Shown: positions 3,461 through 49,702 of the stretch, in pieces
Layout: every line of letters starts with the position of its first letter
How positions within the stretch are numbered: position 1 is the first letter of the stretch
Assembly: GCA_951406725.2 (NCBI GenBank)
Contig: OX597828.1
Location: 42,842,001-42,906,000 of the forward strand
Length of the DNA: 64,000 bases
Direction of reading: 5' to 3'
From: Octopus vulgaris
Taxonomy: Eukaryota
The notes under the pieces: generated by a model
The model's database searches: none
What the model was told of the DNA's origin: nothing
Seen by the model: the letters and a program-made list of their open reading frames with translations, nothing else
Position numbers and translations under genes: made by a program

Positions 3461-3901
3461 TGTTTCTGATGTGTTAAAGTAACTGTAATTTGTAAAAACG
3501 CGCGTGCGCCTGTGTGTATGTGTATTCGCGTATAAGCGTGTTTGTCGCGTGCAGTGTGTGTGTGATTATACATATAAATAAATACACAGATGCACATATA
3601 CATTTATGTACATTGAATAAAACAAACGAAGGAGAAATCTGTGTGTGTCTGTGTGTGTGTGTGTGTGGGGTGTATGTGTGTGGGTGTGTGTCTGTGCGTC
3701 TGTGTGTGCTTGTGTGTGTGTATTTATACGCAGAAGATCGACCGAAAGTGACATCCTTGAGTGCAAAATCCGACATTTCGGACATGGTCCTTCTGCCGGG
3801 AAAATTCAACTGGAGGGAAGTGCAAGAAAGTCCGCACAGTATCTCATTTTCTGTGCTTCAGAAACTGGCTAAAACTGCTGCGATTTTCTACGCACAGATA
3901 C

Positions 3902-4430: not shown

Positions 4431-4870
4431 CACACACAGACACACATAAATTCTTCTTCAATCCCTCCTTCTCTCTCTCTGTCTCTCCCTGTCTCTGTTT
4501 TTCTGTCTCTCTCCGTCTCCAATAATCTTTCAGTCACATTATTGCTTCATTACGCCCTCGGATTTCTTTCCTATCTCTAACGTTGTCATCTTACAACACA
4601 TACAACAACAATAACAACAACGATATAGTCTCTCTCTCTCTCTCTTTCTCTCTCACACACACACTCACACACGCATCCATACACACACGCGCGCACACAC
4701 TCACTCAAACAACCACATCCTTCTTGTAGAGACCTATGCGCTTACACACACAAAAAAATATACGGACATATACATGTTCCTATTGCATTTTTGGCCTCTA
4801 ATTTGATATGAGGATTACACCGTTTCTCCATCGCTTCTTTTTCATATATTTGCTATACATACATAGATGA

Positions 4871-43763: not shown

Positions 43764-43930
43764 TAGGCGCAGGTGTGGTTATGAGGTAAGTAGCTTGTTT
43801 ACCAGCCACGTGGTTCCGGGTTCAATCTCATTGCGTGGCACCTTGGACATGTGTCTTCCACTATAACATCGGGCCAACCAAAGCCTTGTCAGTGGATTTG
43901 GTAGAAGAAAACTGAAAGAAACCCGTAGTA
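43764..43930 (+). mobile_element. SINE family A 5' half, interrupted at its (TA)n by the PLE
   Basis: AGGCGCAGGTGTGG...AAACTGAAAGAAACCCGTAG(TA)n directly precedes the pLTR. Confidence 0.8.
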
Positions 43931-43945
43931 TATATATATACTATA

Positions 43946-44248
43946 CACTCCCAGATTCTCCCACCCCCTTTCCTCACCAGCCTTCCCTCTACTACCCTAC
44001 CAAGAACTCACAACTACCTCGAACACACAAGTGCAAACAAGGGAGTCAGAGAAAGGCAGAATGCCACTTAAATCTGAACACTACTATAGAAATATTCTTT
44101 TAAAAAAACTTTTCTTCTAATTTTTCTAAATTTAATTATTTAATCGTTACAGTTGAAAAGGTCTCAAAATGACCGAAACCGGTACTGAAATGTTCACTAT
44201 AAAATTATTTTAGCATTTTCTATTTTTTACTTGTTTTTTCATATATAT
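43946..44248 (+). repeat. 5' pseudo-LTR (303 bp)
   Basis: CACTCCCAGATTCTC...CTTGTTTTTTCATATATAT, repeated at 48391-48693. Confidence 0.95.
44147..44190 (+). ncRNA. Minimal type I hammerhead ribozyme, U3-A8 core variant (5' pLTR)
   Basis: cag|TTGAAAA|ggtc-tcaaaat-gacc|GAAA|ccg|GTA|ctg: stem I cag/ctg, stem II ggtc/gacc, palindromic stem III accggt, predicted cleavage after GUA (44184). Confidence 0.8.
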
Positions 44249-44307
44249 CAACTCGTGTGTTCCTTTTCACCCTTATACATATCATTAACCCACACGAGAT
44301 ACAGAAA

Positions 44308-45543
44308 ATGCCGACAAAAACAGACACAATCACCTCCATAAACGAAGAAATACTGAAAGAACTCAAGAAAATCAACACAAATTTGTCAACTTTTTTTAAC
44401 AAATTCGACTCGACACTTCAACCCAATCGAGAGAACAATGAAGAAACAGATACGAAAAATACAACCTCCGAAATTGTCGAAAACCTTGGAAACTTATGCG
44501 AAACAATTAGAACATTTTTCTCTAACAACGCTAACCAAGGACCTCCAAACGCGTCAATATATGGGATCAATACTCTAACAACATACCAAATGAAACACCA
44601 CATAATACCACAATGGAACAAATCACTCAGAGATAGAAAGTTCGCCTTTTGGAAGATGATCCAAAACAACAACAAAGCGGATATATACGAAAAATGGCTC
44701 AACCGGACCCCGTTAATCCTCCCACGTAAATTCCAGTTCAAAGCTATTACAGAAGAACCTGAAACACAAAGACACCTCAGGGAGAGAATGGCACTGGAAA
44801 AAATGAAAATGGAAATAGAACTTCTGAAATTGAGGGCCCAAACGAATGAGGATAAAATAAAATCCACCGATGAAGATATCAACGAAGAAATTCGCAAAAT
44901 GACCCAAGGCCCAGATCAAGAGAAGTTCTCCAAACTATGGAAAGAGGACTGTGAAAAAGAAGAACTAAAATCTCTCCAACGCTGGGAGAAAAGCGCCACT
45001 TGGTTCTCAGACTATGAAGCCGTCTTTCAAACAGAGCACGCCTCCAACAACCCTTTCCAGAAAATAAGAAAACCAAAACAACACCCAAACACCGATACAC
45101 ACCTGTCTAAAAATCGGAACCTTCACTACTATCAAAAAAAGAATACAGGACCTAACCCCAACTCTGTAAGCAGCCAGCGATACAATATCAGGAATACCCC
45201 CACTTCAAGCAGAGAAAGGATAAATCAACACCCACAGCATAGACACTGCAACCTCATCCCCACCCAAAGGAGTTACCAACGAAATCTTCGTCCCATTAAC
45301 CGGTTAAACAACCATGCACAACAAACCCACACCACTTGCAATGATTACCAACGAAGGCCTCCTAGAACACCACACCCGAATATGGGATATCGGGATGCTC
45401 TCCTCAATACTGCTCCAAGAACACACACCACAAATCACAACAGGAGACCCCTAATCAACAAAGAACAACTATATACTAGCTACCGTCCCAACCACCGCAT
45501 TCATTTTTTAGACCCAATACGCAAACACAGAGACACAAGATAG
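44308..45543 (+). CDS. PLE ORF1, 411 aa from first ATG; predicted coiled-coil with basic/disordered C-terminus
   Basis: Uninterrupted frame 44257-45543, first ATG 44308; heptad-like segments (INEEILKELKKINTNL; LEKMKMEIELLKLRAQTNEDKIKSTDEDINEEIRKM); N/H/R/P-rich tail. Confidence 0.8.
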   Translation: MPTKTDTITSINEEILKELKKINTNLSTFFNKFDSTLQPNRENNEETDTKNTTSEIVENLGNLCETIRTFFSNNANQGPPNASIYGINTLTTYQMKHHIIPQWNKSLRDRKFAFWKMIQNNNKADIYEKWLNRTPLILPRKFQFKAITEEPETQRHLRERMALEKMKMEIELLKLRAQTNEDKIKSTDEDINEEIRKMTQGPDQEKFSKLWKEDCEKEELKSLQRWEKSATWFSDYEAVFQTEHASNNPFQKIRKPKQHPNTDTHLSKNRNLHYYQKKNTGPNPNSVSSQRYNIRNTPTSSRERINQHPQHRHCNLIPTQRSYQRNLRPINRLNNHAQQTHTTCNDYQRRPPRTPHPNMGYRDALLNTAPRTHTTNHNRRPLINKEQLYTSYRPNHRIHFLDPIRKHRDTR

Positions 45544-47834
45544 CACCAAACAAGCAGGAGGAACCAAAAGTAATAAAAATTATTAATCTAACTCACAAGG
45601 AACTAACAGCAAACCAAATAAACATACTTTCCAAAGGACTCAAGTTTACACCCACCCCACAACACCCCAACTACAATGAAATGAAAGAAGACATCGCAGA
45701 ATTCTGCAGAAAATTAAGACTTACTGAGGAGCTATACGATAAATACAACGAGGACGAATCGTTAGCCAGAAATAGGAGTAACTACACCCCCTCGAAAGGT
45801 AAGAATAAAACACTTGATGATTTCTGTGACCACATATCAAATTACCCATATCAACATATGCACAAACAAAAACACAAACCAAACTTCAGCAAAAAAGAAT
45901 GGGCTGAGTTGAACAAATTAAAACTAGATAAAACAATAACAATCAAAGAGGCCGATAAAGGGAGTGCTGTTGTCTTAATGGATACGACATTTTACATAAC
46001 TTTGGTACTTTCTATGCTGGAAGACACAAGATACTATGAAAAGGCACAAAACTACAGTCAACAAAAAATAATGAGGGAACTAAAATCCATATTAAACCCA
46101 TACAAAGCAGGGCTCACCGACAAAGAATATGATTATATGACCAATTTCACAAGTAAAACTAGCCAATTCTACGGTATACCTAAGATCCACAAAAGTGAAA
46201 AAATAAGCAACGCATGCAAGATAGCTACAGACAAAATAATTAAAGTCCCTAATCCTAATGACCTCAAATTGAGACCCATAATAGCAGGTCCCGCATGCGA
46301 AACCCACCGCCTCAGTAACTTTTTAGACACCCTGTTAAAACCACTCCTCAAACATGTCAAAAGCTATATAAGGGACGACTTAGATATGCTCAATCACCTA
46401 CCGAATACTATAAACAAAAACACCATACTGGTATCCTTCGATGTAGTCAACCTCTACTCCAATATCCCCCACAACCTAGGACTAGAGGCAATCCAATTCT
46501 GGCTAGAGAATCACGCCAACGAACTACCACACCGCATCAAAAAAGAATTTGTGATAGAAGGGGTTAAATTCATCCTGGAAAATAACTTCTTCGCCTTCAA
46601 TGACAACTTCTACCGACAAAAATCGGGGACTGCGATGGGTACACGAATGGCCCCCTCCTTTGCCAACCTAGTCATAGGATACCTAGAGATCAGTCTGTAT
46701 CGTAAGGTTCTAGAAAGATATGGCAGCCCTTTCTCCATCTACATAGAAAACAACTGGAAGAGATATCTAGATGACTGTTTCATCCTTTGGCATAAAAATA
46801 TAGAAAAACTCATAGAATTCCAGAAAATTTTAAACGGACTGGACGTAAACATCCAATTCACGATGGAATATAGCCAACAACAACTCCCCTTCCTCGATAT
46901 CCTCATTAAGAAAGCTAATAATATAATAGAAACAGACATATACTATAAGCCTACAGACTCTAAGCAATATCTTCCATTCAATTCATGCCACCCCAGACAC
47001 ACCAGGATGAATATCCCCTTCAATCTAGCAAAAAGGATATGCACTATAGTCTCTAACGCAAACACCAGAGACACACGACTACAAGAACTAAAAGATACCC
47101 TAATCACCAGGAACTATCCACCTTCACTTATTGACAAGTGCATTCAACGTGCCCTTCAACTTAACATCAAGGAACTGAGACATCCCAAATCAAAGAAAAA
47201 CTTACAACCAAAAGCCTTACCATACATCTCCACACACAACCCTCTCAATAACGAAGCCTTCGACACCATCCTCCACAACATACCCCTCCTAAAAAAAGAC
47301 CACAGAATGAACACAATCCTCCAAACACACACGATCATAAAAAGCAAAAGACAGCCTAGATCCATGAAAAGTCTCCTTACACAAGCCCGAATTCACTCTT
47401 CAACACAGAAGCCGACAGTAAAAAAATGTGGAAGACCCAATTGCGGGATATGCGACTATCTAATCGAGGGTTCGGAGTTCTCCTTCAAACAGGGACAACG
47501 GTTTACAGTGAAAAGCAACTTCACATGTGCTTCGGAGAACCTAATATACTCACTAACCTGCTCCGGGTGTCAAGAGCAGTACATAGGCCAAACAAAAAAT
47601 GGTTTGCGTAAACGAATGGCCCTGCACAGATCCCAGATAAAAATTCCCCAAAACAGAAAAATAGCTTTTAGCCAACACATAGATACTTGCGCCAACAAAA
47701 AAACACCAAACTTCAGAATTTTCCCCCTCTACCAATTTAGGGACGATACAACCTCGAGACAAAGAATAAGTAAAGAAAATCTCTTTATTACAAAATACAA
47801 GCCACTTCTTAACGGGTCTACGACAAACAATTAA
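45480..47834 (+). CDS. PLE reverse transcriptase + Zn-finger linker + GIY-YIG endonuclease (frame open from 45480; first ATG 45681)
   Basis: Motifs IINLT..LSKGLKFTPTP (upstream of first ATG), EADKG, YGIPKIHK, LRPII, SFDVVNLYSNIP, QKSGTAMG, RYLDDCF, LPFLD, YYKPTD, SCHP; CGRPNCGIC linker; NLIYSLTCSGC..YIGQT..R..H..H; no stops. Confidence 0.95.
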   Translation, partial: LPSQPPHSFFRPNTQTQRHKIAPNKQEEPKVIKIINLTHKELTANQINILSKGLKFTPTPQHPNYNEMKEDIAEFCRKLRLTEELYDKYNEDESLARNRSNYTPSKGKNKTLDDFCDHISNYPYQHMHKQKHKPNFSKKEWAELNKLKLDKTITIKEADKGSAVVLMDTTFYITLVLSMLEDTRYYEKAQNYSQQKIMRELKSILNPYKAGLTDKEYDYMTNFTSKTSQFYGIPKIHKSEKISNACKIATDKIIKVPNPNDLKLRPIIAGPACETHRLSNFLDTLLKPLLKHVKSYIRDDLDMLNHLPNTINKNTILVSFDVVNLYSNIPHNLGLEAIQFWLENHANELPHRIKKEFVIEGVKFILENNFFAFNDNFYRQKSGTAMGTRMAPSFANLVIGYLEISLYRKVLERYGSPFSIYIENNWKRYLDDCFILWHKNIEKLIEFQKILNGLDVNIQFTMEYSQQQLPFLDILIKKANNIIETDIYYKPTDSKQYLPFNSCHPRHTRMNIPFNLAKRICTIVSNANTRDTRLQELKDTLITRNYPPSLIDKCIQRALQLNIKELRHPKSKKNLQPKALPYISTHNPLNNEAFDTILHNIPLLKKDHRMNTILQTHTIIKSKRQPRSMKSLLTQARIHSSTQKPTVKKCGRPNCGICDYLIEGSEFSFKQGQRFTVKSNFTCASENLIYSLTCSGCQEQYIGQTKNGLRKRMALHRSQIKIPQNRKIAFSQHIDTCANKKTPNFRIFPLYQFRDDTTSRQRISKENLFITKYKPLLNGSTTNN

Positions 47835-48390
47835 TATACCTCAACTTTAGAATAAAAGAAAAAAATATATATACACACACAAATACTACACTCCATAGAA
47901 TCCATTACTAATCAGCCCCTTCATAGCTATATTTACACCCATTCATATTCTCCCTTCTCTGTTTTTTTCTTCTTCTTCTTCTTCATCATCATCGTTATCA
48001 TCATCATCGGCGTCATCATCATCACCACCATCTTCTCCTTCTCCTTCTTCTTCTTCTTCTTCTTCTTCTTCTTCTTCTTCTTCTTCTTCTTCTTCTTCTT
48101 CTTCTTCTTCTTCTTCTTCTTCTTCTTCTTCATCATCGTTATCATCATCATCGTCGTCATAATCATCACCACCATCACCATCATCTTCTCCTTCTCCTTC
48201 TTCTTCTTCTTCTTCTTCTTCTTCTTCTTCTTCTTCTTCTTCTTCTTCTTCTTCTTCTTCTTCTCACCCCTACCCCTTAAGTTTGTCACTAATGTTTTTT
48301 AGTATAACACCTACGCTAATTCTATAAACAATCCTGAATTGAACTGAGACTGCCAGCCGCCACTGACCATTCAAAATACGACCATCAGGG

Positions 48391-48681
48391 CACTCCCAGA
48401 TTCTCCCACCCCCTTTCCTCACCAGCCTTCCCTCTACTACCCTACCAAGAACTCACAACTACCTCGAACACACAAGTGCAAACAAGGGAGTCAGAGAAAG
48501 GCAGAATGCCACTTAAATCTGAACACTACTATAGAAATATTCTTTTAAAAAAACTTTTCTTCTAATTTTTCTAAATTTAATTATTTAATCGTTACAGTTG
48601 AAAAGGTCTCAAAATGACCGAAACCGGTACTGAAATGTTCACTATAAAATTATTTTAGCATTTTCTATTTTTTACTTGTTT

Positions 48682-48693
<12 letters not shown>
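48391..48693 (+). repeat. 3' pseudo-LTR (303 bp), running into (TA)n
   Basis: Identical to 43946-44248 on base-by-base reading. Confidence 0.95.
48592..48635 (+). ncRNA. Minimal type I hammerhead ribozyme, U3-A8 core variant (3' pLTR)
   Basis: Identical copy of 44147-44190. Confidence 0.8.
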
Positions 48694-48899: not shown

Positions 48900-48922
48900 T
48901 ACGGGTTTCTTTCAGTTTCTTT

Positions 48923-49702
48923 CCGTGTTCGTCCCTTCCTGTGTTTCACGTTCATTATATATAAAAACATTCATTCTTATATTATTGCGGCGTTACGTGC
49001 ACCCCCCCCCCCCCGTTTGTTTGTCCAATTTTAAACCCTGCACGACTTCTATACACACTGTCTTTCCTGCCCGCCATTGCTTCTTCACCAAACTTTTTGG
49101 CGCCCTCCGATTCTTCCCTCTCTTCCTCCCATCCTCCTCCCCTCTTCCTCCCATCCTCCTTAATCCCTTCTTTCTCCTTTTCTCTTGGTCACTGATTCTG
49201 TCCCCTGCCTTCCACCCTCTTTGATTCCCTCTCTCTCTGTCTCTCTTTCTCTCTCTCTCCTGCGACCTGCTGCTTCTTAAACCATTCTGTTGGCCTTCGT
49301 ATCTCGACCAACATGTGTCCCCGCTACCGAAACGGTAATTATTTCTACGCCAGCTATGTTGTTGTTGTTTTTGTCTCATTTGGTCTAAAGTCGTATGACA
49401 ACCACCGTTATATATGTTTTGTTTGTTCATTACCGTTTTCAATTTCGTTTTCGTCTCTTGTGTTTACATCCGTCTTGTGCGTTCACATTCCTGTCTTCTA
49501 CCAAGAAATCTAATGCTTACAGCTTAGTTTTTTTTCTTGGGGCTGGCCGAGTTGGAGCAAATATCAGAATTGAACAGCCGAAATTTGCTATGATGATTCG
49601 GTGTCTGACTGAAGATTGAAGGCTTCGAATGATTTGTCTGTGTTCCGTGTTCGTCCCTTCCTGTGTTTCACGTTCATTATATATAAAAACATTCATTCTT
49701 AT
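48923..49702 (+). mobile_element. Non-coding element with ~58-bp terminal direct repeats ending in TA (non-autonomous PLE-like)
   Basis: CCGTGTTCGTCCCTTCC...CATTCATTCTTATAT at ~48923-48980 and ~49645-49702; its 3' part resembles 36171-36310, 37884-38013 and (minus) 25140-25220. Confidence 0.65.

Follow-up and report, generated by a model that had tools for sequence, protein, structure and literature searches.

In the Cercyon Penelope-like elements (PLEs) of Schistosoma mansoni, a type I hammerhead ribozyme lies in both pseudo-long terminal repeats (pLTRs) and combines a U3-A8 core pair and a G10.1-C11.1 pair with a palindromic stem III predicted to be dimer-dependent; the copies are mostly dispersed and truncated, and an RNA circle has been proposed for PLEs (Cervera & de la Pena 2014, PMC4209133; here and throughout, papers are cited from the portions of text available to us). 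The same paper reported U3-A8 in PLE hammerheads with a descriptor of its own and about 1,300 matches. Natural hammerheads in which C3-G8 covaries to U3-A8 were also described by Perreault et al. (2011, PMC3088659), according to whom U3-A8 variants had previously been shown to be active in vitro; as far as the available text of that paper goes, its hammerheads were not analysed as parts of PLEs and no effect of an A17 opposite U3 is mentioned. In PAc, a Poseidon element of Anolis (Frangieh et al. 2024, PMC11167929), two adjacent internal start sites of the reverse transcriptase (RT) lie 3′ of the hammerhead and bound a tail of 30-40 nt, targets are AT-rich, and both strands are cut and extended. 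Neptune PLEs (Craig et al. 2021, PMC8557442; killifish, PMC12602865) have a C-terminal GIY-YIG domain, a CX2-5CxxC linker, (TA)n targets and a separate open reading frame (ORF) 1, set apart by a frameshift in the legend to Fig. 1 of PMC8557442, and they occur as partial tandems and inverted copies that carry a tail at one end. Metazoan non-LTR retrozymes (PMC7229834; bioRxiv 10.64898/2026.07.22.740005) likewise carry type I hammerheads and occur as tandem copies, and their circular RNA intermediate has been shown experimentally in animals (PMC7229834). Here we analyse a Neptune-like PLE that shares features with each of these systems, located in a window of 64,000 nt of Octopus vulgaris (contig OX597828.1, positions 42,842,001-42,906,000 of the forward strand; coordinates below are within the window). 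The ends of its genomic copies rule out a linear, hammerhead-cut monomer as the insertion template, and we see an even chance that the template is a ligated circle primed internally.

The repeats, hammerheads and end sites on which this argument rests are as follows.

43946..44248, + strand: 5′ pLTR, part of an upstream tandem unit and identical in sequence to the 3′ pLTR.
44145..44192, + strand: 5′ type I hammerhead, from sequence letters and covariation.
44145-44152/44185-44192, + strand: its stem I, CGUUACAG/CUGAAAUG, with a single A.A mismatch; read directly, the 5′ arm (44145-44152) is CGTTACAG.
44153-44159, + strand: its core from U3 to A9, UUGAAAA, with U3 at 44153 and A8 at 44158.
44160-44174, + strand: its stem II, GGUC/GACC (arms 44160-44163/44171-44174), with a 7-nt loop, from sequence letters.
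44175-44178, + strand: its GAAA, from sequence letters.
44178-44183, + strand: its palindromic stem III, ACCGGU, from sequence letters.
44184, + strand: its A17, with the cut predicted after this base, then CTG (44185-44187).
44240..44248, + strand: UA run 1, +56 to +64 from the cut, the commonest 3′ end of genomic copies and the presumed RT start site.
44274..44282, + strand: UA run 2, +90 to +98, the second 3′ end of genomic copies.
48391..48693, + strand: 3′ pLTR, ending at the +64 site within the (TA)n target, from repeat comparison.
48590..48637, + strand: 3′ hammerhead, identical to the 5′ one, with U3 at 48598, A8 at 48603 and the cut predicted after 48629.

The end repeats are identical at 300 of 300 positions (43946-44245 vs 48391-48690), and identity continues to 44248/48693, into the TA target, for 303 nt in all; this copy reaches 239 nt beyond the upstream cut. 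Each hammerhead lies inside a direct repeat, and the two are 4,445 nt apart. An earlier reading made from the sequence only had proposed that cleavage releases a monomer of exactly this length, able to circularise or to serve as mRNA or template. The spacing of the predicted cuts is indeed exact, but the linear monomer did not hold up as the insertion template once the ends of genomic copies were tabulated. In a sample of the first 40 loci of the core list on contig C1, picked regardless of their ends and comprising 53 cores, none ended at the predicted cut, although the core pattern stops at A17 and would have detected such copies: 35 ended at +64, 16 at +98 and one at +41, and one ran on. 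A second sample, 40 loci with 784/785-aa frames drawn from 131 protein matches, gave 33 ends at +64, 25 at +98 and 14 copies that ran on; among its copies with core mismatches, four stop near +64 and a fifth is interrupted within the core. At both end sites a UA run gives way to genomic (TA)n, and the 34 nt between them represent the PLE tail (PMC11167929, PMC8557442). In outward-facing inverted pairs, one arm always ended at +64 and the other at +98 (33 of 33; 12 + 21), a rule also followed by all four inverted pairs of a sister family, F3, at +149/+191.

On the 5′ side, none of the 18 segments extending as far as the cut stops there (95% upper limit for stopping 15%, the crossings not being fully independent); in every one, 28-30 of the 30 nt upstream of the cut are identical, with neither a stop nor inserted bases. 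Truncations short of the 5′ cut number 31 and are scattered from +106 to +1275, and upstream extensions have no fixed starting point, their lengths lying anywhere between about 110 nt and over two units. The linear monomer also fails as a template because priming at +64 or +98 would yield a cDNA of just 64-98 nt. In the available literature, with supplements and subscription papers outside the search, we found no mention of the one-site-each rule, of the 18/18 read-through or of a target matched by both sites. A linear RNA could still give rise to multimers without a circle if the RT jumped from the 5′ end of the RNA, within the 5′ repeat, back to that molecule's 3′ repeat, much as in LTR strand transfer. 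Such homologous jumps, discussed for Penelope elements (PMC3846280), would account for the multimers and for the identity of units within a locus, but they sit poorly with 18 seamless crossings, and a cut monomer would force a jump after only 64-98 nt at every insertion. We consider this route improbable.

We favour a ligated, internally primed circle. The hammerhead pair would cut as a dimer through its ACCGGU palindromes, probably weakly or with the assistance of a protein because U3 can mispair with A17, and a host ligase would seal the 4,445-nt monomer. The endonuclease would nick the (TA)n tract, each nicked end would prime on one UA run, at +64 for one DNA strand and at +98 for the other, and the RT would pass the sealed junction, perhaps for more than one round, generating the pLTR, tandems and inverted pairs. 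This model would account for continuity across the junction, variable lengths of more than one unit, homogeneous tandems and selection on the ribozyme fold. In the literature, a PLE circle and target-annealed priming have been proposed and no demonstration was found, with subscription journals and supplements outside the search; nor did the available texts describe a 4.4-kb coding PLE circle, the demonstrated retrozyme circles being short and non-coding, unlike this element.

Variation among units is relevant to both homogeneity and tandem formation. Direct units at the same locus differ at 44 of 19,025 sites (0.23%) and inverted ones at 0.18%, and copies from different loci differ at 4,620 of 399,114 sites (1.16%, 382 sampled pairs). 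Units within a locus share private variants, defined only as absent from the other sampled loci, with pairwise counts of 12 for direct and 29 for inverted units. At family-polymorphic sites, a few comparisons within a locus show differences (22 and 17 sites). Many of these come from loci L166 and L125, which resemble independent insertions, so some arms may derive from different parents. Full-length head-to-tail tandems exist at L146/L147 (C9:10.67-10.69 Mb), L149 and L171 (C9:55.71 Mb). Divergent RT-PCR, a check put forward with the sequence-only reading, would not be decisive for a circle because these genomic tandems carry the same junction. As a separate observation, the near-identical multi-unit tandems L146-L147, L171 and L149 are candidate products of more-than-unit copying. 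Contig C1 also holds tandem retrozyme-like repeats of 353-362 bp (L191-L217, L221-L229), in which both core types, C3-G8 and U3-A8, occur; several of them form inverted arrays resembling those of the PLE and terminate in (TA)n at two neighbouring sites.

The letters and coordinates of the hammerhead motif in both pLTRs are as first described. The motif has the core N3-U-G-A-N-N8-A...GAAA...U-H with a Watson-Crick 3-8 pair (UUGAAAA/GAAA/UA), three stems and type I ends, with covariation in stems I and II, while stem III forms as an intermolecular palindrome only. A structure-checking descriptor returned two motifs across the whole window, both of them these hammerheads. An Rfam scan gave Hammerhead_HH9 only, at 19.7 bits (E 0.42) and under the gathering score of 52, a cut-off tuned to larger canonical motifs and not a defining property of the type I class. 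Folding of single copies showed no gain over shuffles (monomer z -0.7 to -1.3). Because single-copy fold and Rfam score are both weak, the case rests on comparison.

Covariation of the stems was found between families. Stem I reads CAG/CUG in F1, the family of this element, GAUAU/AUAUU in F2 and AGAAAU/AUUUCU in F3; stem II reads GGUC/GACC in F1, GAU(G)/(C)AUC in F2 and, in F3, GU/AC in older copies and GC/GC in younger ones. Pairing within a family's own stems reached 4-5 of 5 positions vs 1-4 across the F1, F2 and F3 groups, counted by script, as a MAFFT alignment of six hammerheads was out of structural register and was left unused. F3 is a PLE whose ORF2 is 57% identical to that of F1; F2, with 48 pattern matches, is tied less closely to PLEs (ORF matches at 5 of 39 loci given). 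The 3-8 pair covaries too, since the homologous repeats L224 and L208 (75% identity over 530 nt, stem I compensated) switch between U3-A8 and C3-G8. This cross-family pattern bears out the compensated U3-A8 core of a PLE-type hammerhead. Compensation within the family was given little weight: a single same-family C3-G8 copy (C13:524775-524806, L036/L057), diverged and with a pLTR 89% identical, stands beside genomic copies with a single change, 11 at position 3 and 4 at position 8.

Genome-wide counts point the same way. The 32-nt core, with N7 free, has 1,825 exact occurrences, and the pairing-free pattern TTGANAA-N12-20-CGAAACCGGTA has 2,709 matches vs 2 for the reversed control. The U3-A8 pattern with Y17 gave 4,950 matches vs 260 for the control and the one with G17 gave 168 vs 108; position 17 therefore obeys the not-G rule, Y17 being far above control and G17 near background. 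The C3-G8 pattern gave 1,676 matches vs 90, a number comparable only roughly with the U3-A8 counts for A17 and Y17, as the three search patterns differ in detail. Searches limited to CUGANGA hence undercount hammerheads here, and, as anticipated, such a search misses the F1 family, returning just the one C3-G8 copy.

The motif could instead be a decayed, non-catalytic remnant that hitch-hikes in a young family. A monomer no stabler than shuffles, an Rfam score far under threshold, the single changes at positions 3 and 8, and an older subfamily, F1b, without the 10.1-11.1 pair would all fit such a remnant. Decay after insertion of the 1,825 copies explains the single changes, however, and a remnant would not be expected to keep its core letters, to covary in its stems across families whose proteins are just 57% identical, to covary at the 3-8 pair between homologous repeats, or to hold G17 at background level. 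We regard a remnant as very improbable and are highly confident that the motif is a true PLE hammerhead and that its kind is already known. Relative to Cercyon, stem II has 4 bp instead of 7-8, the extra base between positions 9 and 10.1 is lacking, the 2-nt palindromic insert of stem III is kept, as in Drosophila, rotifer and shrimp PLEs, and the youth of the family leaves its copies almost identical.

Co-folding of two copies predicted an intermolecular ACCGGU helix (p 0.92-0.99) and an active dimer at -24.7 kcal/mol vs -2.2 for the active monomer. The need of the palindromic stem III for a dimer is thereby upheld as a prediction, and the motif resembles the dimer type of PLE hammerhead in its presence in both pLTRs, its short palindromic stem III and a dimer that is stabler, by prediction only. 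Cleavage is nonetheless predicted to be slow, because U3 pairs with A17 and the active dimer lies above the lowest-energy fold; the sequence-only reading had overlooked this pairing. In canonical hammerheads, a G at position 17 pairs with C3 and thereby abolishes activity, and by analogy the U3-A17 mispair may act as a brake on cleavage. No paper on a C3U/G8A double mutant was found in the literature search.

Several points weigh against the circle. In the predicted dimer, U3-A17 pairs with p 0.84, and the lowest-energy fold (-26.9) is 2.2 kcal/mol below the active one. The F1b copies (L038, L048, L051) replace the G-C pair by a non-pairing A10.1.C11.1; as a side observation, F1b seemingly propagated while carrying it. 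PLE hammerheads cleave poorly, even as dimers (PMC4209133). For PAc (PMC11167929), the only PLE examined in vitro, the available text reports that hammerhead mutants left insertion in vitro unchanged, the ribozyme thus being dispensable there, that uncut RNA was the main substrate, that cleavage required protein, and that no RNA-seq reads started or ended at the cut. The start sites of PAc also share no homology with its target, whereas the UA runs here match (TA)n. PAc further differs from this element in having C3-G8 and a single ORF, within which its start sites lie; here they lie in the 5′ untranslated region (UTR) and are used one each by inverted pairs. The private-variant counts are pairwise and concentrated at few loci (L149, L171), TA microhomology obscures the exact insertion junction, and ends and shared variants of just this kind would be expected of read-through RNA transcribed from tandem parents whose units are identical.

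A close alternative to the circle, credible if short of an even chance, is that the template is uncut read-through RNA of partial or full tandems. The hammerhead would then cut a minority of transcripts and serve another step, such as releasing uncapped ORF1/ORF2 mRNA or limiting transcript levels. The role of uncut RNA in PAc and the predicted attenuation by the U3-A17 mispair favour it, as do the full-length tandems at L146/L147, L149 and L171, which might act as parents. Cleavage by type I hammerheads can also drive cap-independent translation in viral UTRs (PMC13725137), and the ORF1 ATG (44308) is the 124th base past the first predicted cut, as the sequence-only reading had placed it, but a 7-codon upstream ORF (44190-44213) starts +6 after that cut. 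Furthermore, a direct tandem was found at just 1 of the 40 loci sampled regardless of ends, and extensions copied from read-through RNA should shrink with each generation unless multimers regenerate, yet they exceed two units and have no fixed start. The circle and the uncut precursor are inseparable from sequence alone.

The remaining features of the element are its coding regions and 3′ UTR.

44308..45543, + strand: ORF1, 411 aa, an open reading frame.
45504..45510, + strand: slippery heptamer U UUU UUA in the ORF1 frame, a candidate -1 frameshift site into ORF2.
45480..47834, + strand: ORF2 open frame, 784 aa stop to stop, -1 relative to ORF1, with RT (PF00078), zinc-finger-like linker and GIY-YIG.
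47960..48265 (approximate), + strand: (CTT)n/(TCA)n microsatellite within the 3′ UTR, with unit lengths that vary among copies.

The N-terminal 252 aa of ORF1 are 44% identical to ORF1 of F3; no Pfam family exceeded the cut-off for ORF1, and an atlas search gave no usable match. Every anchored F1 copy (46 of 46) carries the heptamer (His-Phe-Leu) at the ORF1/ORF2 overlap, and it recurs in the same frame in F3 (L129, minus strand near 3502); -1 frameshifting may occur at this site, although no convincing stimulatory hairpin was seen 3′ of the F1 heptamer (-1.8 kcal/mol). In ORF2, the linker CX4CX2C (CGRPNCGIC, about 47427-47453) is zinc-finger-like, and the GIY-YIG endonuclease matches PF01541 at E 4e-4, slightly under the cut-off. 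The RT with a C-terminal GIY-YIG, the pLTRs, the partial tandems, the inverted copies and the 30-40-nt tail are those of an endonuclease-containing (EN+) PLE, and the CX2-5CxxC linker, which is also common to Nematis, and the (TA)n targets are traits of Neptune. The element is hence best described as a Neptune-like Penelope, placed by traits, not by a tree. A 300-aa piece of the RT gave 131 scored matches at 97-100% identity, which indicates a young family, and many copies keep an open ORF2 frame. A SINE-like repeat (window about 43770-43945), which may be a short interspersed nuclear element (SINE), hosts the element in its (TA)n tail, and a similar tail sequence, inverted, lies past the 3′ (TA)n tract (about 48900-48925). 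Runs X15-X19, labelled as three other organisms, contain 80-87% of the element's words, so the family is either common to close relatives or recently transferred.

Much of this biology has precedents: pLTR hammerheads, dimer dependence, U3-A8 and the circle proposal are already known (Cervera & de la Pena 2014), as are the tail and the two start sites (Craig 2021, Frangieh 2024), and the core variant had appeared in both Cervera & de la Pena 2014 and Perreault 2011. The variant itself adds little, and the value of this family lies in its youth, high copy number, open ORF2 frames and very regular scars. More speculatively, and rather doubtfully as a whole, these scars may record the entire PLE cycle: a cut and ligated 4.4-kb coding circle, primed twice simultaneously by an enzyme dimer through telomerase-like annealing of each nicked (TA)n strand to one of two UA runs 34 nt apart on a single RNA, rolling reverse transcription that yields pLTRs and tandems, and the U3-A17 mispair as a built-in brake on cleavage. 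If this were true, the cycle would have as its genomic signature the one-site-each rule (33/33 in F1, 4/4 in F3) together with the 18/18 read-through. What PLE hammerheads do has been called unclear (PMC8557442). Overall, with the linear cut monomer ruled out, the family offers a good substrate for deciding between a circle and an uncut precursor.

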